In this document: positions 25,408-60,271 of the stretch, piece by piece
Position numbering within the stretch: position 1 is the stretch's first letter
Layout of the letters: the number at the start of each line of letters is the position of its first letter
Assembly: GCA_018333525.1 (NCBI GenBank)
Contig: JAGXTF010000118.1
Location: 53,064 to 117,063 of the forward strand
From: Bacteroidota bacterium
Lineage (GTDB): Bacteria; Bacteroidota; Bacteroidia; NS11-12g; UBA955
Length of the DNA: 64,000 nt
Direction: 5' to 3'
Program-made: the position numbers and the translations under genes
Notes under the pieces: model-generated
The model's database searches: none
The model's input: the letters and a program-made list of their open reading frames with translations, nothing else
What the model was told of the DNA's origin: nothing

Positions 25408-26471
25408 ATGGTTGTAAAAGGATTTGCGAGTGCCGTGCATGGCGTGAATGCCACGTGCATTTCTGTGGAGGTAAATACCAGTGCGCCTACCCCGGAGTTT
25501 AAAAATTTTGTAATTGGATTGCCGGATATTGCGGTAAAAGAAAGCATTCACCGAACGGATGCAGCGGTAAAAAACAGCGGCTATGAACCTTTGCGACAAA
25601 AGGCAATTATCAGTCTGGCTCCGGCAGATTTGCGCAAAGAGGGGAGTGCATATGATTTGCCCATTGCAGTGTGTATTCTGGCCGCAACTTATCAAATTCC
25701 GGAAGCACCATTAAAAGATTATGTAATTATGGGAGAATTGGGATTGGATGGTGAGGTAAAACCCATTAAAGGCGCATTGCCGATAGCATTACAGGCATTA
25801 AAAGATAAATTCCGTGGATTGATACTTCCGTATGAAAATGCGAAGGAAGCGGCCATTGTAAAAGATCTGGAAGTTTATGGCGTAAAACACCTGAAAGAAG
25901 TGGGAGATTTTTTCTCGGATAAAATTCAATTGGAACGGGTGTATGCAGATCCGCGCGGAGATTTTGAAGCGGCACAGGGATTTTACGATGTGGATTTTGA
26001 AGATGTACAGGGGCAGGAAAATATCAAACGCGCCATGGAAATAGCTGCCGCCGGCGGACATAATATTATTTTAATTGGCCCTCCCGGTGCGGGTAAAACC
26101 ATGTTGGCAAAACGCCTGCCCACGATAATGCCTCCAATGACTTTGCATGAATCTTTGGAAACCACCAAGGTGCATTCCGTTGCGGGGAAATTGGGAAATA
26201 AAGCATCCCTGGTTTCACAAAGACCATTTCGTTCTCCGCACCATACGATTTCAGATGTGGCTTTGGTGGGCGGTGGAAACCATCCGCAACCGGGTGAAAT
26301 TTCTCTGGCACATAATGGCGTTTTATTTTTGGATGAATTACCGGAATTTAAACGCACCGTTTTGGAAGTGATGCGCCAACCTCTGGAAGAGAGAAGAGTT
26401 ACTATTTCGCGCGCAAAATGGGCAGTGGAATATCCTGCCAGTTTTATGCTGGTAGCCAGCATGAATCCCTG
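25408..26471 (+). pseudogene. comM: ComM/YifB Mg-chelatase-like AAA ATPase, N-terminal part, interrupted by the element (ORF reads on to a stop at 26487)
   Basis: [39 protein letters not shown]; breaks at ASMNPC where PCG is expected. Confidence 0.93.
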
Positions 26472-27949
26472 TAGTTGTGTTGCTTAGTTGTCATCAGTTT
26501 AAGGGAGGTGGGGGTTGGGAGGTACCGCAGTTCGATATGGATGTCTTCTTTGGCAATGGTTATCTTATCAGTAACCGTTTCAACCAGTAGTCTTTTGTCT
26601 TCTCTATTCATACCAGTCCATTGGCTGTAGAGATCGCGGGCATCGTGGATGACTTGGTCTGTTGAGGCTTCGGTTAATTTCATATGGTCTATTTCGGCTT
26701 GTAAGACTGCGAAGTATTTTTTCTTCTGATTGTATTCGTTCGTTATTGGTTCCCAGTGCTCCGCAAAATTTGCTTTTGTAATGGTTCCATCACCGTGCAA
26801 TGCCAAAATCCTCTTTTGTTCTTTGAATAAAGAATCAATCCGGTTTTGAAGAATCTCCGCTTCTTTTTCTTTTTGACCCAAGGTTGTGTGATGTGATTTT
26901 AGATAATTCGAAATTTCGTCGTCCGAATTCAGAAAGGATTTCAACTGCTCATGGAAGATTTCCTCTAAGTCTTCACATGGGATTTTGTTCCGGCATTCAA
27001 CGCAGGTGTATTTCGGAGAATTGGAAGGCACATACATTTTAGTCCCGCATTCGCAGATGGCTAATCCGCTAAATAAATTAGCGGCCTTGCGAGCCGGTTT
27101 GCGGTTTGTGGCATTCTGTTCATCCAATATCCTGTTACATTCTTCCCAAAGTTCTTCTGAAACAATGGCCGGTGCTGGAGTGAATACCCAGTCCTTTTTA
27201 TCCTTCTCCTCCCATTTTTTGCCTTTGCCGAGGCTCCGTGAGTAGTTGGCCCTGTGAAGACCTTTAGCCAACGGGTCGCGAATGAGCCGAACTATAGTCG
27301 TGTCGGTAAACTTCGATCCATTGCGTGTTTTGTATCCTCGTTCGTTAAGAACCTTTGCGGTGTGCTTTTTCCGTTTATGCTGATTGAATAGCTCAAATAT
27401 TAGCTTTCTGATGGGAGCCTCGTTTTCGTCAAGTTCCAGCTTCCCATCAACCCGTTTGTACCCAAACGGTGCTTGGCCACCCAATGGCTTGCCGAGCTTT
27501 GCTCTTATGGGTACTGATGCCGCAACCCGGTCAGCAATTTCTTCGCGCTCCCATTGAGCCATTGCCGCGATTATGGTAAAGAATAGTCGCCCTGCTGGAG
27601 TAGAAGTGTCTATCAACTCATGCATGGAAATAAGGTCAGCGTTGACTGCTTTGAATATGTCCGAGAACTCCAATAGCTCTTTTGTATTCCTGGCTAATCG
27701 GGCCAGTTTGGAGAATATTAGGCCTGAAATGGCCTTTGATCTTATGTCTCGCAGCATCCGCTGGGTTTCGGGGTGATCCATGACGGATTTGCCCGAGACG
27801 GCCTCAAGGTGGTAGACAGCGACGATCTCCCATTTTTGAAGTTCAGCGTACATTATTGCTCTAGCTTCATGATTTTCAGGACTTTCGCCTTTGGCCTGGT
27901 CCTCGGTTGAAACCCGAATCCAAATGCCTACTTTCTTTTTTGGTTCCAT
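26444..27949 (-). CDS. Large serine recombinase (integrase of the comM element)
   Basis: WIRVST catalytic Ser, LARLAR, recombinase domain, Zn-ribbon CECG/CVEC, coiled coil; 3' end overlaps comM antisense. Confidence 0.95.
26461..26494 (+). other. attL junction (comM arm, central TG 26470-26471, element arm)
   Basis: ATGAATCCC-TG-TAGTTGTGTTGCTTAGTTGTCAT; comM motif breaks here and the element arm is an inverted match to 60230-60250. Confidence 0.8.
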
Positions 27950-28201
27950 TATTGTTCAAACTAGCTATAAACTGCTTAAAAAACAAGGGCATCTTGACAG
28001 AGAAGACTACACTTTTTCCACAATAAAATGATTCAACAGAATTGATGATGAATATAGTTGCATTGGAACAATTTCTTGACCTTAATGCTTATATGAATAG
28101 GCCTAAATGGGCTCTTCAATAATGAATTAGAAATAGATTTTGTCAATATGTGCTGCACGATTAATTATGATATCATTACTGTAAATCAAAATCAATAAAT
28201 T

Positions 28202-28396
28202 ATGAACTCGACACAAATATATTTAGTATTGGTCCCGTTGTTAATTTTAGCAGCTGTGGCTTTTTTAAAAGCACTTTTTGAGAAGGAGCTCAGATGGAGG
28301 TTAATCTTTATTCTACTTTGTATTATTGTATTTGCCATATTTCTCTTCTTTTACCTGAATTTTACAAAAAGCGCGATGAATCTCGCGCTTTTCTGA
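28202..28396 (+). CDS. Small two-TM membrane protein
   Basis: ATG start, two hydrophobic segments. Confidence 0.45.
   Translation: MNSTQIYLVLVPLLILAAVAFLKALFEKELRWRLIFILLCIIVFAIFLFFYLNFTKSAMNLALF
28367..28392. terminator. Hairpin, possible bidirectional terminator
   Basis: AAAAGCGCGA-tgaatc-TCGCGCTTTT perfect 10-bp stem. Confidence 0.45.
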
Positions 28397-28492
28397 TAAA
28401 ATAGACACTATTTGTGTGTTATATGTTGGACGTTTATATAGAAACTTGTATGAATAAAATATTTTGCTACCTTGCATTGAAGTTGGTTTAAC

Positions 28493-28771
28493 ATGGACAA
28501 AAACTTAAATAATCTACAGGGTTCAGAAAAACCAGAACCTAAATACTTTGCAATTTCAAGTGATTCACCTGCCAAACATAGAAGAAACTTTTTATTAATA
28601 ATGGGGTTGTCATTAATTGTTTGTGTCGCAACACTTATATTCGTCATTAGAGGAATCAAAAGCTATGAAATTCTTATATCCAGCATATTTGTGCTTTTAT
28701 CAAGTAGTGGCTTTTTTACGATTTCCTTTTATGAAGCCATCATTAAGAGGGTAAGGAAAAATGCCGATTAA
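28493..28771 (+). CDS. Small two-TM membrane protein
   Basis: ATG start, two TM segments, overlaps the next ORF by 11 bp. Confidence 0.5.
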   Translation: MDKNLNNLQGSEKPEPKYFAISSDSPAKHRRNFLLIMGLSLIVCVATLIFVIRGIKSYEILISSIFVLLSSSGFFTISFYEAIIKRVRKNAD

Positions 28772-29879
28772 AAAATTATTAAGATTTTTACAACGCCTAT
28801 TAAAGGGTAAGAAGTTTTCGTTCTCAATTATATTGGGCTTTATAATCACTTTACTTGTAAAGAAACGTGCAGCGGATTTTTTTGGCATTTCTGAAATCGA
28901 AATTGACAAATCAAACTTGGGAATATTTCTCTGTATAGTGTCCATTTTTGTTTGTTTGTCCATTTTATTTGATGGTGTAAGAAGTAAATATAAATCAGAC
29001 ATAAATCAAGATACTGAAATTGGTAAAAACCTTGGAATATTTGAGGGGCAAAATATTAATTTATCTGAGTTAAGAGAAAAAATGGATAGGGCCATTTGTA
29101 ATTTGGAGAAATTAAAATTGTTTTGGATGTGGGCCGTGATTTCTTGGCTATTATTTTACATAGTTTCACTGATTTTTTATTGCATACCTTATACTCCGTT
29201 AATGATATATTTTAAAGAGGATCCAGTGAAAATTACTAGAATTGCTGATGTACTTTTGAATGCGATTAACTTATTAAATTCATTTTTTTTATTGTTATGT
29301 TACTTCATACTGGGACACAAAACATATGATGAAAAGTTTATGTGGCCAAAGAGCTCTTTGTTTTCATCTATTTTCATCGCTTTGGTCATTGTTTGTATCA
29401 ATATCGGAGTAAATGCTTCGCCTGTCAAAGATTTAAAAGACGAGACAATTATAAAGGTATTAATTCATGCTTCTTATATAAATCTTCTTATCGGATTAAT
29501 TTCTGGTGTAATCTTGGGCTTGCTTACTAGCAGGCTGGATAGTCGGTTCATTTCGCCAAGGGCATTCTACATAGCTTGTTTGTTTTTGTATGTTGGCATC
29601 CAAATGACGTATCCTATAATAAAAATGGGATTTTATAAGTTTCTTCCTGAGTGGAAAAAAGTTAGTGAAACAGCATTTCAGGAGTCGGTAGTTGTTTCAG
29701 CCATTTTTATTGGTATTGCATGCGTTGGGAAGTGGGTGCTTTTTAGGATTATAGAAAGGGCTAAAGAGAATCATGGGCTGCTGATTTATTTCTTGCGGTT
29801 AACTACTTTAAAGGAAATCACACCAGAATATAGAAAAACACTAACAAAAGCAGTACAAAAATACTACAAGGAAGTATAA
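28761..29879 (+). CDS. Multi-pass membrane protein of unknown function
   Basis: 372-aa ORF with about 8 hydrophobic segments. Confidence 0.7.
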   Translation: MPIKKLLRFLQRLLKGKKFSFSIILGFIITLLVKKRAADFFGISEIEIDKSNLGIFLCIVSIFVCLSILFDGVRSKYKSDINQDTEIGKNLGIFEGQNINLSELREKMDRAICNLEKLKLFWMWAVISWLLFYIVSLIFYCIPYTPLMIYFKEDPVKITRIADVLLNAINLLNSFFLLLCYFILGHKTYDEKFMWPKSSLFSSIFIALVIVCINIGVNASPVKDLKDETIIKVLIHASYINLLIGLISGVILGLLTSRLDSRFISPRAFYIACLFLYVGIQMTYPIIKMGFYKFLPEWKKVSETAFQESVVVSAIFIGIACVGKWVLFRIIERAKENHGLLIYFLRLTTLKEITPEYRKTLTKAVQKYYKEV

Positions 29880-30125
29880 GGACTACTGAATTTAGAATTG
29901 GTTATAGTACAGAAAAAGTACGAAATTTAATCCATCAAATCTTCAATAAATATTAGTAATTGAGCATTGTATAATGCGACATTAAGGCGGATAGGTTGCT
30001 CACTACGGTTTCTCAATGCTCCACCCAATTGTATTTCTCTCGATTACATTGTATTTAACCAAAATAGGAAAATGTCTTTATTCTTACCTGAGTATTTTCC
30101 GTAATATTTTTCCCCCATAGTTGGA

Positions 30126-32373: not shown

Positions 32374-32664
32374 GGGTAGAAAGATTATTTTACGAATATA
32401 GGTTTTTACCTTAAAGTTGCTATATCAACAGGGTTTTAGACATTATTGATTTTGATCAACATCGAATTTGTTAATTTATTTAACAATGAAACACCCATAA
32501 AATAGGCGATGGTTTTGACTTTTTCAAATCAATTTCTGTCAAAATCTCAATAATTTGCTTATGACAACTCTGAAAAACAACAAAGCCGGAATTGTGATCC
32601 GGCCCTGCTGGCTATGAAAACTTAAATCTACCCAAGACAAATCTATATACCAACAACTGTAAAA

Positions 32665-32699: not shown

Positions 32700-32746
32700 A
32701 TGGAGTTTGGTTTTCTGAGAGAGTTAGGTTCCCTGAAAGGCGCAAT

Positions 32747-35700
32747 TTACTCACATCTTATTACTTTTTCAGCAGCATTCTTGCCATTTTCATAGGCCCT
32801 TATTGTATAGCTGCCTTGCGCAAGATTGGCAGTTTCTGTTCTTATTGATACTTTACCCTGATCATCAGCCCTACACTCACATATCGATTTAACCAATTTC
32901 CCATTTGCATCAAGCATTTCAATTCGTACAGGTGCCCCCGGTGTTCCCTTATATTTTACATCTAAGAAATGATTGAAAGGATTTGGGCTTACCCAAAGCC
33001 CAGTGTTTTTGGAAATTTCAACTATATCTGTCGAAGCAGGGGCACCACCACCTTGGCTTTGGGAGTAAAAATCACCACGAATTCCGAATTGAACACGGCC
33101 AGTTTCAATCGAATCTTCAACGGTTTCGACTAAATCAAAAGAGGCTGTATCTGTATAGTATATGCCATCCATGCCGTTTTGATAACGCCATGTGAATCCT
33201 AGGAATTCATGGAGGGTATCAGGCAAAAGAATTGGACCAATTTCAGCGCAAGGTACATTTATGATTAATTCTCCAGGTGAGCCGATTGTATAACCATTTC
33301 CGGGATAAGATTGGGCGTTCAAAGCTGTCCAGATTTGATCTGGAACCGTTACAAGTACTTCGGCTACATTGTAAAAATCAGCATCGTAACCGCAAAATTT
33401 GAATTTGGTGGGTCTTTCCACTACAGAATCTAAATTGGGAGTTTTTGGAACTTTTACAAAAATCCAGTCATCAACATGATCACTAAATGGCGGGCTAACA
33501 TAAGAGAGATAATAGTTGGCGGAAACTATATTGTTATTATAGACAATATTGTATCCAATATTTCCAGTTGTTTTTTGATAGTTTGTCGAGTAGTTTAATT
33601 TCTCTGGATAAGTCATTCCATAATTCGCTTCGTCCGCGCAAGTTTCAATTCTTGCCAAGAGACAAAGGCCAATTGTATTACTGTATTTCTTAGTACCTGC
33701 CTTATTGCTATAATACCAACCTGGATGAGGAATAATATCAGGAAATGTCCATGCATAAGTTATCATTACCTGATCCCCTGGAGCGATTCCATAATGGCCA
33801 GTTGCAGCAAACACATAGTCATTAATATTTATTGGATTCGTGTTTATTTTGTGACCAATTGGGTAACTAACCCCACTGTCAATGTTGTCGAAATATTGAA
33901 TTCCAGTCCATGAAGTAGGCCAATCTTCATTGGTGCTGTTGATTGTCCAGTACAAATTCAATACACCAGTAAAAGAAGTATCATTACCACGATTTTGGAT
34001 GTAAACATGAATAAAATTTGTATCAAGATCACAATTGACATTAACCCTGTCAGTCCATCCATAAACCGGCTGACCTGAATCACCCCGAGTTCTATTCCAG
34101 AGGTGGTTGCTGTGCGTGTAATTATTTGTATCACCTAGGTTCGGTTCAGACCCAATATCATTGTCTGAATCAGCAATCCAGAGATCGGAATAATTACTCA
34201 GTTGTTGGTACTGACCAACACTAATTACTCTTGATATAATGGGTTTTGTCCACGTATTACCTCCTGTCAAAGGACACCTATTCCTTAACAGAATTCTGTA
34301 GTACTGCCTCCTTTGGCATGAGGTGAAATCAGGTGTCACATTAAATGAGTCCAGTAATGTATAGCCTAGACTATCCCAGGTTCCACCTTCCGGATTTCTA
34401 CTTGTTTGCCAAACGGCATAACATACATTTCTTTGTCCTGACCATTTGCCTTTTAATCTGTGACTATTTCCGGATGAAATCAGAGTGTCATTATTTACAC
34501 TGGTAAAACTTGGGTTAGCAACTTTTACCAATGCAGCCGTGTTGCTGTAAATGGTAAAACAACTATTCTCAATTCGTAATCGAAAATTAGTTTGATGAGC
34601 ATATTTACTGGCGGTATCACGAAGACTAGGACCACCGCCAATATTAAATGGCAAATTATTCCATGTTCCATTGCTGCTCTGATATTGCCATCTGAAAGAA
34701 GTAGTCGATTGCTGATAAGTTTGAATAATGACATCCATTCCAAATATCATATTATTGCATGCCGTTGCGTCTATGGGATGTTGAGTAATTGATAACACTC
34801 CAATCACTTTAATAATATTACTCGTATCATTCCCACAATTTAGGCTATTGAGTACTCTTCGGAAATATCTAAAAGGCCATGATTTCACAGAAACGTTATA
34901 TTTAGAATTCGTTGCACCGCTTATGTTCTGCCACACAATACTGTCTGAACTATATTGCCATTGGAATTGACCACCGGGTAATAAATTGGCTGTGTCATGG
35001 GTTCTTAGTGTATCACTACATCCACTTGATTTTCTTTGAATAATGTTTGAAGATTTTGCACTTACAATATGAATTAAATTACTTTTGGAAACGCAACCAT
35101 TTGAAACTACAATTCTGTATATATATCCTGTAGGATATGGCAATGCACTAGAAGTTTTTAAAGATTTGGTGAATTGTTGAAGATTGGATTCCAGATTTTG
35201 CGATTGCATATTCCAACTGTAAGTAAAAGTACCAGTGCCTCCTGTTGGGGTTGAACCGGTTAATTGGACTGTATCGCAAAACGAAGTATCGCCGGAAATC
35301 ACGTTATTCCCAATTGGAGCTAATGGAGTTGTAATTAATGAATCAGAATATTGACAGCCATCGCTTATATCCATAAGCAAAACACTCAACAATCCTGTAT
35401 CATACCAACTTATTTTAGCTTCTGGATTGGAAGATAAATTCGCATTTATTCCACCAGTAACAGACCAATTGTATTTCACAAAACTATTCAATGGTGACAC
35501 GCTATAGGATGAGAATTGACTTGTATCGCAGGTTAAAGTTCTTCCACTAACGGTATAAGATTTTTGCTTTACTTTTATTGTCTCGGTTACTGTATCTCCA
35601 TCAATTATCAAGTTGACAACATAAATACCAGGCGAATAGGAATGGGATACTTCTCTTCCAGAATCTAATGATCCATCACCAAAAATCCAAATCGAATTTT

Positions 35701-38332
35701 CTCTCCAAACCATATTGTGTGAAAAATGAGCATGGGTGCATGAATCTAGGTACCAACTTATTCGTTTTTTTAATTTAGCAACTGGTTGATCGAAAACAGG
35801 GTCGGGCAAACTGTGTGCAATACTCATAACTCTCCCTGGAACTTTGTACACTAAATCATCTTCTGCAAATCCGCAGTTATTTGGCTTTTCATCTGTGCAG
35901 AGGCTATCTGGATATTTAATTACATCAAGTTTTTCTCCCACTCCGCCAGGTAATAAAATGATTGTATTGTTTGGAGCTTTTTGCATTATCCAATAATAAT
36001 TAAAAGGGTGCAGAGCAATTATTCTGCTCATTTTAAGAGGATCCTTTTGATTTAGATCTACTTGAAATAGCGTATCGGCATTTAATCCAAAATTCACACT
36101 ATCACGGTATGTCGATCGTCTTTGAAAATACAGAAATCTAGAATTTGGCGAGAATTCATGAGGTTCAAGTACATTTCTATCTTCCATTTCAGTAGAGTTT
36201 TGCACTGTATAGTCTGTAAAATCGTATTTAACTTTAATATCACCTGTCTTGCGGTCAAATTCAAATACTTTGTAATTACAAGATATGTATCTACCATCTG
36301 GAGAAGTCTTTATAGTCTGATAATAAGGATAATTTATCTGCTTTATTGTATCAAAGAAAATCATTGTATCTTCAAGCACTTTAAAAATAACCAATGAACT
36401 GTCATACACAGATCCCGCATCAGGTGGACAGGCTAGAAATAGCCAATAAAAACTATCGTTACTTGATGAAATTGCAGTAATGGCTTCAGTACCAAAAATT
36501 GCTCCATTACTATCGGACGGAAATCCAACTGGCCCACGCAACGGAATATCCGTTGGACCAATAATATCCCAATATCCAGTTGCAGTATCACGACCAATTG
36601 TTCTGTAATAATTATAACCAGAAATATGACCATTGTATAACGTAAACCAAAAGTACTCATCAGGTTTTCCCGGCTTTGGTAATACTAGATTTTGAAGAGC
36701 ATTTTGCGAACCCTTTATCACAGTTGATTGTGATCTTTTTGCTACCCAATCCCGACTTTGAGAAGTATCTCTATACCATAATCTGGCATACTTATTAATA
36801 TTTATCGTATTATATCCACCACCGTAAAATCTCATAACCCCATTAGTGTCGCTAACCGACATAGCAGTTTGAACAGTTTCAATACCATTGGCAGATGGTA
36901 TTACTGAAAATGCTTTTGTAGTTGGCAATACTCCATTTTTATGAAATTCTAATGAAACTTTTCTCCCACAATACCAATTTGCATTTACATCTTTAAGTAT
37001 TGGCCCACAAGGCCTCACATAAATCATGTCTGGCCTTGTCAATTCAACAGTATCGTTTGCTCCAAATACAACTCTCAGATTTATTGTATACAAACCAGTA
37101 TCGGTCAGTTTTACTGTATAATCCACGTTATTGGTTACAGAATATGTTTTAACTAAACTTCCATTTCTGTAGACACGCCAGATATATGTGGCTGTCTGCG
37201 ATTCTTTTTTGAATGCTGTAAATGTGAAATTACCACTGTCACAAAGTTCATAAAACTTCGCATCAAACCAAGCTGATTTCACGCAACATTGCAATTGCAA
37301 ATAATTGAGTGTATCAATTTGAATAAGATTGTATCTGTACTTAAGTAACGAGTACTGCATTATTTCAACCTGCCCTTTGGTAAATGTATTTCGACAAGCA
37401 TCAGGAGTATAATCCATGTGATTTTCAATCATATCATTTTCATCGCCAATTTCGTGGCAGCTATTATTAGGCGTACATGTAGTATTTTCACCATCCAAAG
37501 GTGGAGTATCACAGCAAAAATCACCTGTTGTTGAACATGTATCTGAGTTTGATGGACAGCCCCCACTAAATGTATGTAATAGACCAAAGTAATGGCCCAT
37601 CTCATGAACTAGAACTCTTCCCCGACTACTTGTAAATAAATCATAACTACCACCCTTTGTTACATAATCACCACAACTCTTTCTATCAAGAATTATACCT
37701 GGAGCACCAGGCGAATATATTGGGTGTGTTGCAAAACCTAAGATACGTGCTCCTGGAATTGCAGTTTTTATTTGGTCAACTATGTAAATATTTATATAGT
37801 TATAGGTACTAGGAAAGTTGCCCTTCATGCTATCCAATCTGTACAATTCATTCGGCCAAACTCTGTAAAGATCGGAATTAGGGTACCTGAAAATACTCTT
37901 CTTTGATAACCCCATATTTAGAGGGGCAAGGCAAAAATAAAATTCTACATCACTCGCCTTGGAATTGGTTCCATAAGCATTAGCAAATTCTTCATTTAAT
38001 ATTTGAATCTGATCAATTACTTGTTGGTCACTAATATTAGTTCCTGTTCCAGGAGTATTGTCAGAGGGGTCATGAACAATATGAACCACAAGTGGAATAA
38101 CATATTTCCTTTTGGGACAGCTACCCCTACTTTGAACGCCATGATATGATGGTGTAACAGAGTATGTAGATCGAAATTTTTCGAGCCCTTCCTGAAATTT
38201 CTTTTCGTTCCATTTTCCAAGATCTGTGCTGTCTAAGGAATAAGTCCGCTGTTCATCAAAGATACAGTGATCAGTTTGTGCCGCCAATTTGCATATAGAA
38301 AGGCAACAGAGGATAGTAAGCAAGTATTTCAT
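32747..38332 (-). CDS. M43 (pappalysin/ulilysin-like) zinc metalloprotease with beta-propeller, PKD/Ig-like repeats and T9SS C-terminal domain
   Basis: Signal peptide, IPLVVHIVH, HEMGHYFGLLHTF, ENHMDY Met-turn, WIFGDG PKD motif, VSPNPF...GSY CTD. Confidence 0.9.
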   Translation of the reverse strand: MKYLLTILCCLSICKLAAQTDHCIFDEQRTYSLDSTDLGKWNEKKFQEGLEKFRSTYSVTPSYHGVQSRGSCPKRKYVIPLVVHIVHDPSDNTPGTGTNISDQQVIDQIQILNEEFANAYGTNSKASDVEFYFCLAPLNMGLSKKSIFRYPNSDLYRVWPNELYRLDSMKGNFPSTYNYINIYIVDQIKTAIPGARILGFATHPIYSPGAPGIILDRKSCGDYVTKGGSYDLFTSSRGRVLVHEMGHYFGLLHTFSGGCPSNSDTCSTTGDFCCDTPPLDGENTTCTPNNSCHEIGDENDMIENHMDYTPDACRNTFTKGQVEIMQYSLLKYRYNLIQIDTLNYLQLQCCVKSAWFDAKFYELCDSGNFTFTAFKKESQTATYIWRVYRNGSLVKTYSVTNNVDYTVKLTDTGLYTINLRVVFGANDTVELTRPDMIYVRPCGPILKDVNANWYCGRKVSLEFHKNGVLPTTKAFSVIPSANGIETVQTAMSVSDTNGVMRFYGGGYNTININKYARLWYRDTSQSRDWVAKRSQSTVIKGSQNALQNLVLPKPGKPDEYFWFTLYNGHISGYNYYRTIGRDTATGYWDIIGPTDIPLRGPVGFPSDSNGAIFGTEAITAISSSNDSFYWLFLACPPDAGSVYDSSLVIFKVLEDTMIFFDTIKQINYPYYQTIKTSPDGRYISCNYKVFEFDRKTGDIKVKYDFTDYTVQNSTEMEDRNVLEPHEFSPNSRFLYFQRRSTYRDSVNFGLNADTLFQVDLNQKDPLKMSRIIALHPFNYYWIMQKAPNNTIILLPGGVGEKLDVIKYPDSLCTDEKPNNCGFAEDDLVYKVPGRVMSIAHSLPDPVFDQPVAKLKKRISWYLDSCTHAHFSHNMVWRENSIWIFGDGSLDSGREVSHSYSPGIYVVNLIIDGDTVTETIKVKQKSYTVSGRTLTCDTSQFSSYSVSPLNSFVKYNWSVTGGINANLSSNPEAKISWYDTGLLSVLLMDISDGCQYSDSLITTPLAPIGNNVISGDTSFCDTVQLTGSTPTGGTGTFTYSWNMQSQNLESNLQQFTKSLKTSSALPYPTGYIYRIVVSNGCVSKSNLIHIVSAKSSNIIQRKSSGCSDTLRTHDTANLLPGGQFQWQYSSDSIVWQNISGATNSKYNVSVKSWPFRYFRRVLNSLNCGNDTSNIIKVIGVLSITQHPIDATACNNMIFGMDVIIQTYQQSTTSFRWQYQSSNGTWNNLPFNIGGGPSLRDTASKYAHQTNFRLRIENSCFTIYSNTAALVKVANPSFTSVNNDTLISSGNSHRLKGKWSGQRNVCYAVWQTSRNPEGGTWDSLGYTLLDSFNVTPDFTSCQRRQYYRILLRNRCPLTGGNTWTKPIISRVISVGQYQQLSNYSDLWIADSDNDIGSEPNLGDTNNYTHSNHLWNRTRGDSGQPVYGWTDRVNVNCDLDTNFIHVYIQNRGNDTSFTGVLNLYWTINSTNEDWPTSWTGIQYFDNIDSGVSYPIGHKINTNPININDYVFAATGHYGIAPGDQVMITYAWTFPDIIPHPGWYYSNKAGTKKYSNTIGLCLLARIETCADEANYGMTYPEKLNYSTNYQKTTGNIGYNIVYNNNIVSANYYLSYVSPPFSDHVDDWIFVKVPKTPNLDSVVERPTKFKFCGYDADFYNVAEVLVTVPDQIWTALNAQSYPGNGYTIGSPGELIINVPCAEIGPILLPDTLHEFLGFTWRYQNGMDGIYYTDTASFDLVETVEDSIETGRVQFGIRGDFYSQSQGGGAPASTDIVEISKNTGLWVSPNPFNHFLDVKYKGTPGAPVRIEMLDANGKLVKSICECRADDQGKVSIRTETANLAQGSYTIRAYENGKNAAEKVIRCE

Positions 38333-38474
38333 TTTTTTATGATTAGAATGTCTTTATCATTTTTTTATTTAAATGCGATCTAACATAAATCTAATAATAA
38401 ATATAATTTAGGAGTGATTAAGAAAGTACAATATAAGAGAGTAAGTATTAATCAAATCACGTTTTTCAGATTAC

Positions 38475-40598
38475 CTATTGTTTAACAATTTTCTTTATCA
38501 AAGGCATGCGATTTTCATCGCTTATTAAGATGACATAAAGCCCCTCCGGAAATTCGGAAAAAGAGATAGTTGAGCCGAATCCTTGTTCCAAAAGTTGCCC
38601 TTGGGCATTATATAAACTATATTTATGTGGCCCAGAAGGCGAGAAATTTAATGTCTCAGTAACAGGATTAGGATAAACATTTAGTAAATGTGCAGTAAGT
38701 TGGTGAGTTCGGAGAGATTTGATTTGTATTTCTGTTGTGTCACTGTAACAACCTGTGGTGGTATAAGCCCACACAGTCCAATTGCCTGTATCCTTTACAG
38801 AATAATAAGGTATTGCAGTAGTATCCATATTCCCATTATGCTTAAATACAAAGCGCATTGCTGGTGATGAAAGATAGTTAGTAATTCGTATACTATCTGT
38901 AAGGGTAAATACCGCAACTGGTTTATCTATTGAAGTACTTTTAAATACTTTTATTGTATCGAAATTCAAGCAATAATTGCTATCGTAAAATTTTACTGAA
39001 TAAATTCCAAAAGTATCAATATGTCTTTCAGTCAGGCTACCTCCATTTTCCCACATTGAGCAGAATGATTGAGATGGGATGGATAAATTTATTCCGAAGG
39101 TGTCGTAACAAACTGGAATATCAGCGCCCAAAATATTCTTTTTTACAGGCTCCCAAACAGGAATGTTCTTAAGGATAGTATCATTCCCAGTTGAATATTT
39201 TGCAATCATTTTTACCTTTATTTGGCCCGAACTAATTATCGGAACTTGGATTGACGAGCCACTTTGGGTGGTTTTTGATCCATCGGTATTAATTACCTCC
39301 CAGATAAGTGAATTTTCTTGCCCGGTAGTGATGGCTTCTAGTTCTATTTGATTGGATTTACAATTGGTTAAATATCTAACTTCACTTCGATATTCTCTAA
39401 AAAAGCTTGATGGAAAATTCGGGGGAGCATATTTTATGTTATGTAAGGTTTTTAACCAATTTGGGTTATAGTTTTTTGGAACAAAAGAGTCATTTGTATT
39501 TGACATAAGGAAAAGACAGTTTGTGTCCTTATATATCCATAAATTTACTGAATCTACCCATCTCTCAGTAATGTAATAGCCACTGACCAATTCATTTTTG
39601 CTTAATCTGTATAAGCCAAAACTATAGCGAAATGGAGGTTGCGATTGTTTAGCAATAATATTGGTGTCCCAATCTTTTATTCTGTTTTGAGCTAATTGAG
39701 CTACAGTTCCAGCCTCACTGTTAGCAGTATAAAGGTATTCCTCATTCTCAGAAAACTCAGGTCCAATTAAAAGACCATGTTCCACGTCGTACCTTATGAT
39801 TCGGTCGGTAAGTGCCGAATTAAACGCATTAAAATGAGCAATTTGAATTTTTCCATCTTCAAAATTATGGTTAGTAATGCTATGACCATTTACTGAAAAT
39901 AAAGCGCCACATTGCCCGGAGCTATTTTTGTAGCTATTAGCATTATATTGCATAAAAGGACAAGGAATAATACCGTTGTCAGTGATCAAGAAAAATAACA
40001 AGTTATCAGAAGTATTTGATGCGGTTACCAGCCAATAAAAGTAGTTGTTGTGGTGTATTGTTGCTCCAATACCTTCGATAACTCTCGTAGCTAATAATTG
40101 ATCTTTTTTAACGACTGTTTTTGTTTTCCAATTGATGAGGGCATACCTTAATCTATTATTTAAATTACCACTTTCGTAGGTCGTATAAAAGAGATAGCAA
40201 AAACTATCTTTTCCAGGGTACGGAATAAATACAGCACCTCGGTAAGAAGTCCAGTTACCGGTCGAAATTTGACCTCCGGAAATAATATTATGGCTGCTGT
40301 CGTAAACAAATCGGCTGTCAAAATATAGTTGTAAATGCCCCCCAGTGTCCGTGAATACTGCCATTTCTTCTGTCGATATGGCTTTGGAATATGGGTGTTG
40401 GTATGGGCCATTTTCAGTCCATTCGATCCAGTTACTATCACCAAATACCCAATGTCGGGTTCTATTTCTGTCAGGGTTTGCATTCTGTCCTTGGACCATG
40501 TTCGCAGCAAGAAACAAAAAGAACAAAATAGGAGCGCCCCTTGAGAAAAGGATTTGAAACGGACGACAAGCAGGAACATCACTTTGGGTAGAAGTCAT
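38475..40598 (-). CDS. T9SS-secreted beta-propeller/PKD protein
   Basis: W.FG...D..G.L..Y, IPYPG, EFS..E.YLY blocks; VYPNP...GLY...KKIVKQ CTD. Confidence 0.8.
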   Translation of the reverse strand: MTSTQSDVPACRPFQILFSRGAPILFFLFLAANMVQGQNANPDRNRTRHWVFGDSNWIEWTENGPYQHPYSKAISTEEMAVFTDTGGHLQLYFDSRFVYDSSHNIISGGQISTGNWTSYRGAVFIPYPGKDSFCYLFYTTYESGNLNNRLRYALINWKTKTVVKKDQLLATRVIEGIGATIHHNNYFYWLVTASNTSDNLLFFLITDNGIIPCPFMQYNANSYKNSSGQCGALFSVNGHSITNHNFEDGKIQIAHFNAFNSALTDRIIRYDVEHGLLIGPEFSENEEYLYTANSEAGTVAQLAQNRIKDWDTNIIAKQSQPPFRYSFGLYRLSKNELVSGYYITERWVDSVNLWIYKDTNCLFLMSNTNDSFVPKNYNPNWLKTLHNIKYAPPNFPSSFFREYRSEVRYLTNCKSNQIELEAITTGQENSLIWEVINTDGSKTTQSGSSIQVPIISSGQIKVKMIAKYSTGNDTILKNIPVWEPVKKNILGADIPVCYDTFGINLSIPSQSFCSMWENGGSLTERHIDTFGIYSVKFYDSNYCLNFDTIKVFKSTSIDKPVAVFTLTDSIRITNYLSSPAMRFVFKHNGNMDTTAIPYYSVKDTGNWTVWAYTTTGCYSDTTEIQIKSLRTHQLTAHLLNVYPNPVTETLNFSPSGPHKYSLYNAQGQLLEQGFGSTISFSEFPEGLYVILISDENRMPLIKKIVKQ

Positions 40599-47262: not shown

Positions 47263-47655
47263 ATGAAATATGTGCAATTTACACAAATACCAAATGTCAT
47301 ACTGGATGCATATCTATCGGAATTAAGTTTGTCTGAACTGCGGGTGTTACTCGTCGTTCTTCGCCAAACTATGGGATTTGTATATAAGGGTACGCAACAG
47401 CGAAAGAAAAAAGATTGGATTTCGAACGCGTTTTACATTAAAAAAACGCGTCTCTCAGCCAAGTCTGTTTCTTTAGCTGTTGCGAGGTTAATTGATAAAA
47501 ATCTAATTGTTGCCCTCGACGCCAATGGAAATGTTTTACATAGTCCTGAGAGCAGACAGGGTAAAAAGCGGATATATTTTTCATACGCCCCACATTGGCA
47601 TGAGTATCAGCGAGAAAAAATGGTAAACAAATTGGCAAAGAAACTTACAATTTAG
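47263..47655 (+). CDS. Phage replication protein O-like N-terminal wHTH protein
   Basis: FTQIPN.ILD, ELRVLL...RQT.GF, KDWIS...F..KT.LS. Confidence 0.78.
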   Translation: MKYVQFTQIPNVILDAYLSELSLSELRVLLVVLRQTMGFVYKGTQQRKKKDWISNAFYIKKTRLSAKSVSLAVARLIDKNLIVALDANGNVLHSPESRQGKKRIYFSYAPHWHEYQREKMVNKLAKKLTI

Positions 47656-53950: not shown

Positions 53951-54575
53951 CATATTTATTCAAGGTGTTGTTAAAGAAGGAAAACACCTTCAAAGGGTAA
54001 ATATTAACGGTAAAAAAGTCAAGCAGACTTGGTTGTTTTCAACAAGGTTCTTATCAGTTTTATTTGCAATACTACTGATTTTTCTTACACCTAGCGGGTT
54101 TACAAATGATTTTGCTGGATATACAATCAGTTTTTTGGCCATTTTTGTTGGTCTATTCAGTAGTATCGTAATAGCTCTACACGATAAGAATTCGAACCTG
54201 AGTGATGGATATAGCGATTTGGATTCAACTCAAAGAGCCAGAATCAAGCAGAAAAAAAATTACCTGATTCAATTCACCGGATTGACATCATATGCGATTT
54301 TACTCGCAATAGTTATTATTATACTTCTGCTATTTGTGCTTTTCCGCGATTTTGACGAAATCAATATTAGAAACTATGTGTGGTGTAAGTCCATAAAAGA
54401 AATATCTTCTCGGAATGTTACACTTTTTTTTAAGCTCCTTCTTTCCGTATTGTATAGATTTTGTGTTTATAATTTACTTATTAACTTTTTCGCGATAACT
54501 TTATATGCAACAACAAGTTACTTTTCCTTTGTGCTTGCCGGATATAGAAAACCGCTTAAAATAGACCAAGAATGA
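53931..54575 (+). CDS. Four-TM membrane protein
   Basis: Four hydrophobic helices; overlaps neighbours by 20 and 4 bp. Confidence 0.75.
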   Translation: MQLKNFSIFIQGVVKEGKHLQRVNINGKKVKQTWLFSTRFLSVLFAILLIFLTPSGFTNDFAGYTISFLAIFVGLFSSIVIALHDKNSNLSDGYSDLDSTQRARIKQKKNYLIQFTGLTSYAILLAIVIIILLLFVLFRDFDEINIRNYVWCKSIKEISSRNVTLFFKLLLSVLYRFCVYNLLINFFAITLYATTSYFSFVLAGYRKPLKIDQE

Positions 54576-55603: not shown

Positions 55604-55640
55604 GTTACCTATTTTATGAAGAATTTAATAGCGAAAAACC

Positions 55641-56615
55641 ATGTTGCATTTATATATTGATACAAATGTATATTTGACATTTTATCATTTGACGAGCGAG
55701 GATTTGGAAGAGTTAAAGAAGCTGGAACTCTTGATTGCACGGCGAGGTGAGATCCACCTACATTTGCCAAAACAAACATTTGACGAATTTCATCGGAACC
55801 GTGAGACTAAGATTGCGGATGCACTAGGTAGGTTTAATGAGGAAAAGCTAAATAATCAATTTCCACAAATTTGCAAAGAGTTTCCTGAATTCAAATTAAT
55901 GAGAGATGCTATCAAGGAATTCGATAAGAATAAGTCTAAGTTGCTTGAAAAAGTAAAGGATCATAGTTTCAAAAAAGAATTAGGTGCTGACAGAATAATT
56001 GAGGAATTATTTGATAGGGCTGAAAAGCATGAGTCGACGTTCGAGTTGATAGAGTCCGCAAAGAGAAGGTGTGATCTCGGCAGGCCCCCAGGGAAAAAGA
56101 GTTCACTTGGTGATGCAATTAATTGGATAACTCTTATTGAACGTGTACCCTCGGGTGAGGATTTACATTTTATATCCGATGACAAAGATTACTTTTCGGA
56201 GATTGATACATCTAAATTTAAAGACTATCTTGTGGAAGAGTGGTCAAGAGAAAAAGGTTCAAACATATACTGCTATCGCAAAATGTCGGATTTTTTTAAG
56301 AAAAAGTTCCCTGAAATTAAAATTGCATCTGAATATGAAAAGGATGTACTCATTCAAGAACTGGCTAGAAGAGGTTCTTTTGCTAAGGCTAGGTTGACTT
56401 TGCATGAACTTTCCGAATTCGATGATTTTTCAACAGAACAATTAAATAACTTTGTGCGGGCATGTACTACAAATAATCAAGTTTACTGGATTAAGGGTGA
56501 TAGTGACATTGAGCAAATTATAGCTGAAATAGTAATGCCTAACTTGAGCAAAATAGACCCAATCTTACTTGCCGAGTTTGATAGGATATTTGAGTATGCT
56601 CATGTATTAAAATAA
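55641..56615 (+). CDS. PIN-domain protein (DUF4935-like)
   Basis: YIDTNVYL, DEF.RNR, GDAINW..L, FISDDKDY acidic tetrad. Confidence 0.82.
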   Translation: MLHLYIDTNVYLTFYHLTSEDLEELKKLELLIARRGEIHLHLPKQTFDEFHRNRETKIADALGRFNEEKLNNQFPQICKEFPEFKLMRDAIKEFDKNKSKLLEKVKDHSFKKELGADRIIEELFDRAEKHESTFELIESAKRRCDLGRPPGKKSSLGDAINWITLIERVPSGEDLHFISDDKDYFSEIDTSKFKDYLVEEWSREKGSNIYCYRKMSDFFKKKFPEIKIASEYEKDVLIQELARRGSFAKARLTLHELSEFDDFSTEQLNNFVRACTTNNQVYWIKGDSDIEQIIAEIVMPNLSKIDPILLAEFDRIFEYAHVLK

Positions 56616-56638
56616 GTTTAAAAATAGAATTGGTTATT

Positions 56639-57127
56639 TTATATCGGTTTAATTGTTTTAACTAGATCGTCAATTTTGTCGAATGGCAGGTTACACAGGA
56701 AAAAATCTATAATGTTATGTTTTTTTTCACTACCTTCTTTGAATAGAAGTCTCATGTCAAAACCCATTGGATATGCGAGAAATTGTCTATTTATCATCGT
56801 TGGAACTAGCTCATGAGGAATTAATGGAAAGAACTGAATAGTTACACTTTTTCGTGAACCACCCTCCAAAGTTCTTAGTCTGTCATCAAGTTGACCCTGG
56901 AATAAAATTTCTTCACTGAACCTCAAAAAAGAGTTTGGTAAAGTTTGCTTTACTATTTCAAATATTTTCTCATCGAGAAAGTCACCTTTATGAGAATCAT
57001 AAACCTTGGGATTGAAGACTCTTAGATAAGGTAGATAACCCGTAAACCAATTCCACTTGGGCCCTTCCACTTGAATTACCTTTAAAACAGAAAAATCACT
57101 CTCAGGTAATATCTCTATTGTTCTCAT
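56639..57127 (-). CDS. Hypothetical protein
   Basis: 162-aa ATG ORF downstream of the R-M gene. Confidence 0.55.
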   Translation of the reverse strand: MRTIEILPESDFSVLKVIQVEGPKWNWFTGYLPYLRVFNPKVYDSHKGDFLDEKIFEIVKQTLPNSFLRFSEEILFQGQLDDRLRTLEGGSRKSVTIQFFPLIPHELVPTMINRQFLAYPMGFDMRLLFKEGSEKKHNIIDFFLCNLPFDKIDDLVKTIKPI

Positions 57128-57229
57128 ACTATATTTTTTGATATTTATCTTTATATTGGTCTTTGTTTTGTCTGAATTTTGTTTGATAGAAAGCGCAAGT
57201 AGTTACCCTTTTTAGTCGTAGTCATCTAG

Positions 57230-59794
57230 TTAACCAAATAATGTATTAAGTTGTGATTCTGCCTCTCTAGTTGATTCCAAAGATTTTTCAAGTTCTTCAA
57301 TTGAATTGATAACGTTTTGTCCAATTTTTTTTATTAAAGATTTGTTTTTAGGCACAGGAATTGGGATTTCGGCAATAACATCAGGCTCTAAATGCTCTTG
57401 GTTTGTGCCATACGCAGATTTCAACATTAGACTTTGACCTATTTCTGATTTTAAAAATTGATAGATATATCCACGCAAGAAAAGGTTGTCAACCACAATT
57501 CTTATTAAATTATTAGTGGCAATATGTCCGTTATGCTGTTTTAAAGCGTAAGCCACCCGGCCAAGGGTTCCAGAATCAGAAACAAGAATATAACCATGAT
57601 AAATAGTAAGGGCTTCTAAATGTTTTTTGGTTTGTTTATCAGCTTTAGAACTATCGAGGTATTTGATATTTTCCGTATTTAACTGTGTAATTGCAGTTCC
57701 TGTGAAATATTTCCGGATTGTCGGTCCTTCTGTAATACCTAATTCAGCATAGGGTCGTTTAAATCTTGGCCCATTATAAACTCTTGTTATATCACCTAGA
57801 CGGTGAATTTCGAATTCTTCATTGTCACCTAGGGCCAATACTTTTTGAAAAGCGGCGTTGTGCTTTGGTAAATAACGTATGGGATTTAAAGAATAATCAG
57901 ACTTGTCAAGTTCTGATAGCTTAATTGAAAACCGAAAAGCACTTTCAGTTAAATTTCCTTCGAGAAATTTATGATAATCCAAAGCAATGTCGGTAAGATC
58001 TTCATCTAAAATATAGCTACCTTTTTTAATTATTGGGCTACCTTCTGAATCTCTTTTAAAAATGGCTTCCCCTCTACTCGTCTGTCCGACCTTGTTTGAT
58101 ATCGCAAGGAAAATCTTGTAATCTTTAGGAAGCCTCTCCGCTGGTTTTTCTATGAATATGACCGAAGCCTTTGAGCCACAAAAAGGTTGGAAAGTATCCT
58201 CATGTAGGTTTACAACACCAAGTATTCGAGTATTTGCGAGTATATATCTTCTAATTGCGATAGCTTCTCTATTGTCGAGTTGGCCTTTTGCCATAACTAT
58301 ACCAAGCTTACCACCAGGTTTTAGCCATTGGATTGATTTTTCAAGAAAGAGAATTTCCGGAGCAACACCTTGTTTAGAGTTTGTCCTATTTTCATATATA
58401 ATTTCGTTCTTCTCATTTATATTCCAAACCATTCCAGATTTATATTGTCCTAATATTTTACCCTCCTTAATTCTAATATCATGTCCTGACCCAAATGGTG
58501 GATTAGTTAAGATGATAGTTGCTTTTCCTATTCCAGCTTTGTCCTGAAAGTTTGCAGAAAATTTAGAAATATCATCTAAACTATTAGCCTGTTCAATTCC
58601 ACCATGTCCGTCTTTTCCTATAAGCATGTTTGCCTTCGCAATTTTTGTCAACTTCGGAGAAATATCTGAACCGTAAATTTGGTGAACAAGATTTCTCTTG
58701 AGAATTTCTTTAGCACTTACAGTTCGTTTTGATGAATCAATTTTCTTAAACAAATAGTTCATTGAACTAACCAAAAAGCCTCCTGAACCGCATGCGGGAT
58801 CTAAAATTAAGTCTTTTTCGGTCGGGTCGATAATTTTTACCATCATGTCAACAACCAAACGATTTGTAAAAAATTGCCCCCTTTCGCCTTTTAGGTGAGA
58901 AGCTACATAAACCTCATAAGCTGTCCCAATTACATCATAGGGTGCATCAAGGAATGAATATTGTTGCAAGTAGGAAACTACTATTGCTAACTGAGAATCG
59001 GATGCAGTAATTTCTTCATGTTTATTAAAAACGTCTGGGTACCTATCCTTTACCGCATCGAAAAGGTTCCTTACTCTAAGACACGCGACTTTTCTCAGCT
59101 TTTCAGTATGGAATTCGTCAGGGGTAATATGAAATTCACATTTATCTGCCGCACTTGATTCGTCTTCAATTTTGGCCAATATTACTCTTACCATGTCAAG
59201 TGCGACATCTTCCGAATCTATTCCAGATCGATAAATCGCATTATGGCATCTTTGAAATGCAAGCTTTAAATCAACCGGAGAAATCAAATCAGATTTACTG
59301 AATTTACCAATACTATCCCAAGCGAGTCCATATTTTGGCACCCCTAACCAATTTAGGATTTCGTTTTTCTTATTGTCTTTGCGATAAAACTCTATATTTC
59401 CCCCATTTGTCCAAAAACCTCCTTGTGCTGAACAAGCTGAGATATAGGACACCAATTGTCCATCTTGAGATTTGATGTTTGGGGCTTTTATTTCTCCAAC
59501 AAGGATTATTTTTCCTTGTTCGTTTTCCGCGTTGGCTCTTTTGTTTTCATAAACAATAATATCAGCTCTCTTTCGTTCACGACCAATATTGATAGTGCGC
59601 TCAAATCCAATTAGCTCTTTTGGATAACCTAGTTCACGATGAAGTATGTGAGCTGTCTTTTGCCTAATTCTTTCTTCAGGTTTGTTTTCTCTTTTGGTTT
59701 CAGGGTCCAGATAGTCAATTATTTTTCCTTGTCCATCAAGTGCAACCTGATATTCCTGCGCCTCAAGCCATTTGTCTAATTCGCTCTTCGCCAT
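57230..59794 (-). CDS. Fused restriction-modification enzyme (HsdR-N-like nuclease, N6-adenine MTase, TRD; type IIG-like)
   Basis: PEERIRQ, RADIIVY..GEIK, GQFFT, DPACGSGGF, NPPF, C-terminal HsdS-like SGTLG...IPIPVP. Confidence 0.88.
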   Translation of the reverse strand: MAKSELDKWLEAQEYQVALDGQGKIIDYLDPETKRENKPEERIRQKTAHILHRELGYPKELIGFERTINIGRERKRADIIVYENKRANAENEQGKIILVGEIKAPNIKSQDGQLVSYISACSAQGGFWTNGGNIEFYRKDNKKNEILNWLGVPKYGLAWDSIGKFSKSDLISPVDLKLAFQRCHNAIYRSGIDSEDVALDMVRVILAKIEDESSAADKCEFHITPDEFHTEKLRKVACLRVRNLFDAVKDRYPDVFNKHEEITASDSQLAIVVSYLQQYSFLDAPYDVIGTAYEVYVASHLKGERGQFFTNRLVVDMMVKIIDPTEKDLILDPACGSGGFLVSSMNYLFKKIDSSKRTVSAKEILKRNLVHQIYGSDISPKLTKIAKANMLIGKDGHGGIEQANSLDDISKFSANFQDKAGIGKATIILTNPPFGSGHDIRIKEGKILGQYKSGMVWNINEKNEIIYENRTNSKQGVAPEILFLEKSIQWLKPGGKLGIVMAKGQLDNREAIAIRRYILANTRILGVVNLHEDTFQPFCGSKASVIFIEKPAERLPKDYKIFLAISNKVGQTSRGEAIFKRDSEGSPIIKKGSYILDEDLTDIALDYHKFLEGNLTESAFRFSIKLSELDKSDYSLNPIRYLPKHNAAFQKVLALGDNEEFEIHRLGDITRVYNGPRFKRPYAELGITEGPTIRKYFTGTAITQLNTENIKYLDSSKADKQTKKHLEALTIYHGYILVSDSGTLGRVAYALKQHNGHIATNNLIRIVVDNLFLRGYIYQFLKSEIGQSLMLKSAYGTNQEHLEPDVIAEIPIPVPKNKSLIKKIGQNVINSIEELEKSLESTREAESQLNTLFG

Positions 59795-60010
59795 TTATTT
59801 GAATTCCTTCGAGCCTGTAAAAGTAATTTTAAGTTTTTACAATTTTACAACCCACTTTTTTGAGTTGCTCAGGTTTATCTACCAGAATGGCATCCACACG
59901 CATTTTTAAGGGAATGGCACTCCTGAATATCCGTTTGCGAAGTTAGCATTTTGATTTAGGAGGGCTGAATTGTGCATTTAAGGAGCGTCTAAAAGTATCT
60001 GTAATCTAGC

Positions 60011-60271
60011 TTATTCAAGAAAAAGGTTGATTTTTACTTGGTAACGTAAATCAGGTAAACACCGGCCATTCTCCCAGTTTGTAATCGTATCCTCGGTGAC
60101 CCCAAGAGTGGCGGCGACATCTTTTTGAAGAAGTCCACGGTCCATTCGGACCTTTCTAATCTTCTGACCTAAGGTCTTAGGATTTGCGGGATAACCAGGG
60201 ATTGGGCGTTTTTGGGCCTTTAGGTCGATATTGCAAATAGTCAACGCAACTGTGACGCCAAGCTTATGCAT
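60011..60271 (-). CDS. XRE-family HTH domain; probably the detached C-terminus of the integrase
   Basis: TLGQKIRKVRMDRGLLQKDVA..LGV...TITNWENG...P; ORF crosses the right att site in the integrase's codon phase. Confidence 0.8.
   Translation of the reverse strand: MHKLGVTVALTICNIDLKAQKRPIPGYPANPKTLGQKIRKVRMDRGLLQKDVAATLGVTEDTITNWENGRCLPDLRYQVKINLFLE
60230..60254 (+). other. Right-end att half-site (element arm plus central TG 60253-60254)
   Basis: ATTGCAAATAGTCAACGCAAC-TG-TG; 15/21 inverted identity to 26474-26494, same 2-bp spacing from the central TG. Confidence 0.75.

Follow-up and report, generated by a model that had tools for sequence, protein, structure and literature searches.

In some mobile genetic elements the attachment site of the free form, attP, lies within a gene, and integration changes the protein that this gene encodes. 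The present work deals with what is probably such an arrangement, in a 64,000-nt stretch of DNA (the window, positions 53064-117063 of contig JAGXTF010000118.1, hereafter C118) from the metagenome-assembled genome (MAG) of a gliding Bacteroidota bacterium, where one mobile element, or two joined into a composite, appears to have been inserted into the gene comM by its own large serine integrase. In mycobacteriophages with integration-dependent immunity, attP is located inside the repressor gene and integration removes a C-terminal degradation tag. The comM element resembles them in having its attP within a gene, integration altering the C-terminus of the protein and, presumably, its behaviour; however, the mycobacteriophages split a repressor, which is stabilised by the loss of its tag, whereas the comM element splits its integrase (int), which loses a helix-turn-helix (HTH) module. 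Engineered fusions of serine integrases with a recombination directionality factor (RDF) change directionality and likewise illustrate how a C-terminal addition to a serine integrase alters its function, but these fusions are man-made and favour excision, whereas the integrase-HTH (Int-HTH) protein considered here is natural, would be made by excision and would be present when integration comes next. Entries for SPbeta integrase-YotN fusions also occur in the PDB, where they were met among the structure-chain matches.

Among the recombinases themselves, a close precedent is that of the Myxococcus phage Mx8, in which attP lies within int and integration provides the gene with a new 3' end that alters the properties of the enzyme (PMC6070905, PMC4383910). 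As in Mx8, the attP of the comM element would be situated inside the integrase reading frame, so that integration changes the 3' end of int. Unlike Mx8, which depends on a tyrosine recombinase and tRNA-type sites, the comM element combines a large serine recombinase, comM as its target and a discrete XRE-type HTH module that is removed. The archaeal integrases of the SSV type (fuselloviruses) are encoded by a gene that extends across attP and becomes split upon integration (PMC4383910); these too are tyrosine recombinases, and the enzyme is cut into two parts, whereas the catalytic core encoded by the comM element remains whole. Being of the serine-recombinase type in its catalytic domain, the integrase of the comM element thus resembles the attP-spanning Mx8 and SSV kind without being a member of those families.

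The gene comM, which encodes a Mg-chelatase-like protein, is reported to be the commonest target of the site-specific large serine recombinases, accounting for 12.4% of the predicted site-specific integrases (Durrant et al. 2022, PMC10083194), and is also described as a favoured target of mobile elements in PMC12378983. The available part of Durrant et al., which deals with the same target gene, mentions neither an attP-spanning int nor an HTH tail, and the term 'helix-turn-helix' occurs 0 times in it. No serine integrase gene spanning attP and no comM-targeting Int-HTH protein were found in the literature, although subscription journals and supplements may hold one. Judging from the comparisons reported below, the principle known from Mx8 and SSV, according to which recombination rewrites the recombinase gene, appears to be extended from tyrosine to serine recombinases.

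Organization of the split integrase gene

At the left end of the insertion, preceded on the plus strand by lpxK and gldH, lies the single comM 5' part of the genome (Table 1). The corresponding open reading frame (ORF) of the window spans 25408-26487 and matches the Pfam families ChlI and Mg_chelatase, covering no more than positions 1-161 of the 207 in the profile of the latter. The sequence of the left end is ...aatccc-TG(26470-71)-tagttgtgttgc, as an earlier sequence-only reading of the window had described, together with the right-hand sequence at 60253-54; both were found in the window as stated. The dinucleotide TG of 26470-71 also ends both of the P-type half-sites that occur on the right-hand side, one internal (60253-54) and one at the true attR, where comM resumes. 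The integrase ORF that abuts comM possesses the Resolvase domain PF00239 (E 2.1e-29, residues 9-151) and the Recombinase domain PF07508 (E 2.4e-18); its zinc ribbon PF13408 gives a weak match (17 bits against a cut-off of 25.3 bits), with a CxC...CxxC pattern visible in the translation. It resembles the TP901-1 integrase (1e-19) and the SPbeta integrase chains. The end that the element itself encodes is ...KQHNY, and the last 8 codons of the integrated form (RDSCWLPA), which are followed by the stop, correspond to comM read antisense. The hallmarks of serine-integrase attachment sites are present, namely a TG common to attL and attR, reconstructed arms with 10/12 symmetry and an int gene located at the left edge.

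Two paralogous ORFs of the XRE type, HTH-1 and HTH-2, face the integrase gene from the other side of the insertion. HTH-1, which the sequence-only reading had proposed as the partner of the integrase and which, like the integrase ORF, is genuine, scores 32.8 bits with PF13560 (cut-off 27) and 32.2 bits with PF01381 (cut-off 23), and the scores of HTH-2 are 28.9 bits (PF01381) and 28.4 bits (PF13560). When the TG of 26470-71 is joined by script to that of 60253-54, the frame stays open over 573 aa (493+80), the two parts meeting at ...KQHNY|TVALT..., which reproduces the codon phase and the in-frame fusion claimed earlier. The arms of this joined site are symmetric at 9/11 positions, a value equal to the 8/9 inner identity formerly given under the partition used there, whereas the extended identity came out at 14/21 instead of 15/21. 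A join at the TG of the true attR leads to a protein of 577 aa, also in frame (...KQHNY|IDALPF...), with arms symmetric at 10/12 positions. Depending on the P-type half-site with which it is paired, the P' half-site of attL thus shows a symmetry of 9/11 to 10/12; by comparison, none of the 4358 native TG sites of the window has arms symmetric at 10/12 positions or better. The integrase accordingly has two in-phase HTH partners at its disposal.

Fused and split relatives of the integrase

A database search gave 5937 homologs of the integrase at E<=1e-10, the best 120 of which were listed and examined. Most of these 120 proteins measure 493-522 aa, but eight consist of 635-656 aa and contain HTH domains recognized by Pfam. 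In the alignment of these proteins (A1), the integrase of the window matches the fused proteins up to ...QHNY, where the homology stops; the truncated relatives continue with R[DG]SW..., which is comM antisense, and both HTH-1 and HTH-2 align with the continuation of the fused proteins, made of ALPF..., a linker and the HTH. HTH-1, from VALT... onward, corresponds to this C-terminal extension and shares 48-50% identity with the fused proteins, over the first HTH only. Among 80 loci taken from contigs representing one genome per species, int adjoins the 5' part of comM on the opposite strand in 48 and runs straight into an HTH in 15; in one locus the comM 3' part follows int on the same strand, and 16 show neither arrangement within the stretch available. 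Full fusions among the homologs, which the sequence-only reading had suggested should be sought, therefore do exist.

The reading phase at the far end of the integrated elements was surveyed in 30 of the 48 genomes, picked on the adjacency of int and the comM 5' part alone. A comM 3' junction could be evaluated in 22 of them, the eight others being left out due to contig ends (4), the lack of a match (3) or a fragment whose locus had not been fetched (1); for two genomes (G411 and G418) the frame offsets were calculated manually from the coordinates. Of the 22 genomes, 21 possess an HTH ORF that starts at a distance of 3-12 nt from the comM 3' part, runs on the other strand and shares the offset of int, where chance would give one in three. 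Because the recombination is conservative, equal offsets of int and HTH relative to the adjoining comM codons mean that the two are in frame after excision, and the in-phase HTH expected at the opposite end of related elements is thus present in nearly all of those evaluable. According to their record titles, these 21 genomes belong to Bacteroidota, Ignavibacteria, Dehalococcoidia, Chloroflexota, Planctomycetes, Aminicenantes, Acidobacteria, Gemmatimonadaceae, Eubacteriales, Manganitrophaceae, BRC1, Binatia, Eisenbacteria and a deltaproteobacterium. In a separate phylum sample, 9 of 401 genomes, that of the window included, matched at E<=1e-100; these include G305, considered below, and G129, which is the same genome as G407.

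The stranded HTH ORFs could simply represent ordinary regulator genes located at the end of the element, their frame relation to int being a by-product devoid of consequence for the protein. HTH-1 does possess an ATG of its own, which sits beyond the TG of 60253-54, and some in-frame start occurs upstream of the junction in 7 of the 22 stranded ORFs. In the other 15, however, the stretch from the nearest in-frame stop upstream to the junction contains no ATG, GTG or TTG, and the first Met in the element part is often located past the first HTH, or absent. The uninterrupted Int-HTH frames described above, the phase kept in all but one of the genomes and a linker conserved right up to the crossover likewise speak against an independent gene, an explanation that we regard as very improbable. 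In addition, most genomes with a fused gene have an uninterrupted comM, the frame with the 3' domain comprising at least 510 aa in 10 of 15; in two others this frame was not found, and in three it is short, G408 among the latter having a separate integrated copy as well. In the genomes with an integrated element, the corresponding frame mostly measures 164-228 aa. From the contiguous homologs, the phase, the missing starts and the uninterrupted comM taken together we conclude that the split is more than a coincidence in one genome, and that the C-terminus encoded for the integrase differs between the integrated and the excised state, as the sequence-only reading had held. As far as sequences tell, the same split appears to be the rule, in many phyla, for those members of the integrase family that form the clade directed at comM.

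A conserved attachment site was recognized at the int/HTH boundary of 10 of the 15 fused loci. It corresponds to the pattern CAAC[GA]C..(5 nt)..CA..(5 nt)..GCGTTGCC, in which the central CA, TG on the other strand, is invariant; the other five fused loci fall outside the pattern used for the search. The arms of this site encode Q-R/H-N and A-L-P, so that the conserved peptide and the inverted repeat are two readings of one sequence. In three of the ten loci (L027, L034 and L080) the inverted repeat, according to our own arithmetic, does not share the frame of the int and HTH matches and is kept nevertheless, which suggests that selection acts on the site as DNA; what is conserved in these loci seems to be the DNA and not the peptide.

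Several observations weigh on the other side. One of the 22 genomes (G412) is devoid of an HTH at its comM 3' junction, an offset of 8 nt breaks the phase in G305, and the left offset differs in G422. The phase agreement is also partly inherited, because the halves are in phase whenever a fused gene integrates, and related genomes do not count as independent cases. The HTH module of the present lineage is short, with one HTH of ~80 aa as compared to two HTHs of ~150 aa in most relatives, and could be decaying. In the locus L027, from a genome of the candidate phyla radiation (CPR), the fused gene occurs within ~1 kb of ORFs that start like rpsL, rpsG, fusA and tuf (as read from the ORF starts), so the fused form is not always an obvious free circle. 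Excision was not directly seen: X1, a near-identical sequencing run that probably represents the source sample and consists of contigs only, has a contig of 74.7 kb that spans the whole of the locus L004 (C118:112064-125063), and breaks, joints and loose ends are absent from both right-hand sites. X1 thus shows neither circles nor empty sites, which says nothing against excision, because contigs drop rare forms. In X2, also available as contigs only, about 20 short pieces of low depth lie on the right-hand part of the insertion (segment B, see below) and across the true attR, with none on L004 1-1600, and are too sparse. Finally, the regulatory role of the HTH switch is one that we infer from sequence. 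With these points taken into account, we still hold it quite probable that the integrase gene of the comM element spans attP, that integration strands the HTH and that the HTH acts only in the full-length protein of the excised form.

Other arrangements were met among the relatives. The fused int-HTH gene and an intact site occur in chromosome-like contigs of two small CPR genomes, L027 (503-8479) and L028, the latter from a record that bears the title chromosome (681,747 bp); neither genome yielded a comM 3' domain. In a sister lineage of ~50% identity (L013 1498-3438 and L051 2396-4329), the integrase is located on the comM strand upstream of the comM 3' part, and a single frame of 646 aa comprises the integrase followed by the ComM C-terminus (...CPCGYFNHP...), which represents a mirror arrangement. 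The element of an Armatimonadetes MAG (L042 4409-8530) holds a complete comM directly upstream of int, and int abuts the disrupted 5' part of the host comM; the element-borne copy may compensate for the gene broken, and provides a second attB. Six comM 3' matches occur in G405 (loci L109, L114 and L131 are from G405 and G425), and G425 displays two HTH|comM 3' junctions ~33.7 kb apart on one contig, with one HTH trimmed to 37 residues; both genomes look like tandem or nested arrays of comM elements. One homolog (P0003, 621 aa, 67% identity) contains an internal tandem duplication of ~120 residues over the zinc-ribbon region, either an assembly artefact or real.

The right-hand side of the insertion

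The site at 60254, regarded by the sequence-only reading as the right end of the element in comM, does not have this status. Local alignment of the DNA to the right of 60254 found no likeness to the comM 3' part or to the 3' end of int. The sole comM 3' part of the genome extends from C118:122,793 onward, i.e., from window-equivalent ~69,730, ~5.7 kb past the end of the window; the Mg_chelatase match to profile positions 154-205 begins there, and the single Mg_chelatase_C match of the genome occurs at C118:122976-123266, in a frame of 170 aa. In L004, where position p corresponds to position 59000+p of the window, the true attR junction reads ggcaacgcatcta-TG-tccctgtggc (10732-10756, with the TG at 10745-46) and, combined with the left end, rebuilds the expected comM reading ...MNP|C|PCGY. 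Since comM resumes at this true attR, at window-equivalent 69,747, and not at 60254, the insertion in comM measures ~43.3 kb instead of 33.8 kb.

The site at 60254 duplicates, inside the insertion, the combination of P-type half-site and HTH. It reads ...gtcaacgcaac-tg-TG(60253-54)-acgcc, the portion gtcaacgcaac-tg-TG being located at 60240-60254, and its P arm resembles that of the true attR with ~72% nucleotide identity over 194 nt, the likeness stopping exactly at the TG. Because the similarity of the P arms ends precisely at the crossover, 60254 can be read as a seam made by an integrase, and is best read as separating an intact element of 33.8 kb (int...HTH-1) from 9.5 kb left over from a related element that arrived earlier (...RadC...HTH-2). 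The DNA between the two sites, segment B, encodes according to Pfam a protein with the C-terminal tail of the type IX secretion system (T9SS), two response regulators, a PAS histidine kinase, a FIST protein and RadC.

The mobile unit could be restricted to 26470-60254 (33.8 kb), with HTH-1 as the partner of the integrase in a 573-aa protein, the 9.5 kb with HTH-2 being an earlier remnant deprived of its integrase end and the intact element having entered later the hybrid site left by this remnant. Besides the exact stop of the homology at the TG, this explanation accommodates the arms of the internal site, considered as symmetric (9/11) as those with the true attR, the same derived one-HTH truncation in HTH-1 and HTH-2, and the lack of an integrase in segment B. 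Yet excision at 60254 would leave comM broken, the right flank of this site is unlike any comM half-site, and neither configuration was found as an independent copy: an exact scan of metagenome contigs with the 30 nt to the right of 60254 gave 0 matches, and a DNA search of segment B in 40 relatives and the own genome gave only short scattered matches without a syntenic block. We give the 33.8-kb unit with its remnant slightly less than an even chance; as to the current state, mobility of the 33.8-kb unit and excision of the whole 43.3 kb are about equally probable. Depending on the site, recombination between attL and the true attR would restore both comM and a 577-aa Int-HTH gene, whereas recombination between attL and the internal site would give the 573-aa version and leave comM unrestored.

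A motif of ~30 nt located in segment B (L004 ~7988-8023) and at window positions 32611-32641 recurs at 97% identity elsewhere in the contig of the window and at 84-100% identity in several relatives, and thus constitutes a short dispersed repeat; a backward joint and a loose end were also noted at this spot in the contig alignment. Downstream of comM, at L004 11277, contigs of X1 contain a 20-nt insertion made of two copies of a 10-nt unit, with several loose ends at 11251-11318, which marks this place as variable or repeated.

Possible function of the HTH module

In the arrangement proposed for the comM element, the crossover TG falls between the integrase core and a C-terminal module composed of a linker and an XRE-type HTH. 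The integrated state encodes the 501-aa core integrase, with the HTH module stranded without integrase beside the comM 3' part, and the module would work only within the full-length protein produced from the excised (attP) form. It would thus serve as a protein-level readout of the integration state of the element itself. The HTH tail might act as a tethered DNA-binding arm that autoregulates int and other genes of the element or assists recombination on the attP side, and integration would covalently disable this function, by analogy with the IntP and IntX forms of Mx8. The truncated 501-aa protein should stay able to act in excision together with any RDF that the element has, because it keeps the whole serine-integrase core.

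The split could also be real but neutral, attP being placed in a tolerant linker, with a dispensable HTH tail and isoforms that behave alike. The intact core of the 501-aa form is in keeping with this possibility, as are the second HTH already lost by the present lineage and the genome G412 without any HTH. On the other hand, the HTH module remains open and recognizable in many phyla, at 44-62% identity, even though its translation requires excision, and this persistence argues for purifying selection on the HTH; a neutral split is accordingly considered unlikely. A more specific proposal makes of the HTH module, for a large share of the natural serine integrases, a built-in commitment and directionality device, in which only the Int-HTH protein made by the circle integrates and the truncated enzyme only excises, the HTH being arm-binding or autoregulatory and the direction being set partly by a covalent change of the int gene. 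In this strict form the proposal is rather improbable.

For the clade examined, gene calls made on integrated elements give a truncated enzyme, whereas the native protein that precedes integration has one or two extra HTH domains. Truncated int genes and orphan HTH ORFs at the far end of an element should thus be annotated as belonging together. The arrangement also bears on the understanding of serine-integrase directionality and element regulation, and on the bioprospecting of integrases from prophage-state sequences. If the directionality device were true, the comM-targeting integrases that genome engineering has drawn from integrated elements would have been tested as the wrong isoform.

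Gene content of the element

The coordinates of the main features are collected in Table 1.

Table 1. Main features of the comM insertion. Positions are those of the window, except those preceded by L004; strands are relative to the window.
Feature	Position	Strand	Remarks
comM 5' part (Mg-chelatase-like, YifB/ComM)	25408..26471	+	354 codons, severed after ...ASMNP
Large serine integrase, integrated (truncated) isoform, 501 aa	26444..27949	-	Resolvase and Recombinase
attL crossover dinucleotide TG	26470..26471		comM reading and element homology both stop here
P' half-site of attL, element side	26472..26496		encodes the integrase end ...MTTKQHNY on the minus strand
T9SS-sorted proteins, two, very large (1861 aa and 707 aa)	32747-40598	-	M43 peptidase domain and PKD repeats in the 1861-aa protein
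TrwB/TraG-like ATPase, small, 399 aa	43689..44888	-	TrwB_AAD_bind, TraG-D_C
Second large serine recombinase, 615 aa	45005..46852	-	Resolvase and Recombinase
Phage_rep_O-like protein	47263..47655	+	
Type IV coupling-protein-like ATPase, 992 aa	49330..52308	+	TrwB_AAD_bind, T4SS-DNA_transf; conserved core gene of the element family
Type IIG-like restriction-modification protein	57230..59794	-	N6_Mtase, HSDR_N_2, Eco57I, Methylase_S; cargo
HTH-1, XRE-type HTH ORF, 86 aa	60011..60271	-	HTH_3/HTH_31
Internal P-type half-site ending in TG (60253-54)	60229..60254		right end of the element in the sequence-only reading
Segment B, accessory DNA	60255..64000, on to window-equivalent 69,744		no integrase of its own
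HTH-2, second HTH ORF, paralogous to HTH-1	L004 10491-10793 (element part 10491-10745)	-	adjoins the true attR
comM 3' part	L004 10747-11233	+	window-equivalent 69,747 onward, outside the window

In addition to the genes of Table 1, the element encodes an NA37 nucleoid protein, a D12 methylase and a PIN protein. The large T9SS-sorted proteins are an unusual cargo for a small integrative element. No phage structural genes were found among the element proteins scanned, and no drug-resistance genes were noticed among them. Repeats and promoter-like sites upstream of int were not above chance (7 promoter-like sites as compared to 4.2 +/- 1.9 in shuffles), the sigma-70 consensus used being poor for Bacteroidota. 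The second large serine recombinase is located deep inside the element, far from both ends; L028 also has a second recombinase, but the two share only 24% identity, and we claim no conserved two-recombinase design. The 992-aa ATPase shares 43% identity, over its full length, with the product of the gene directly upstream of the fused int-HTH gene in L024. A much smaller relative, ~7.5 kb long (L059), retains an HTH, a 691-aa ORF and int, which suggests a small integrative, probably mobilisable, core.

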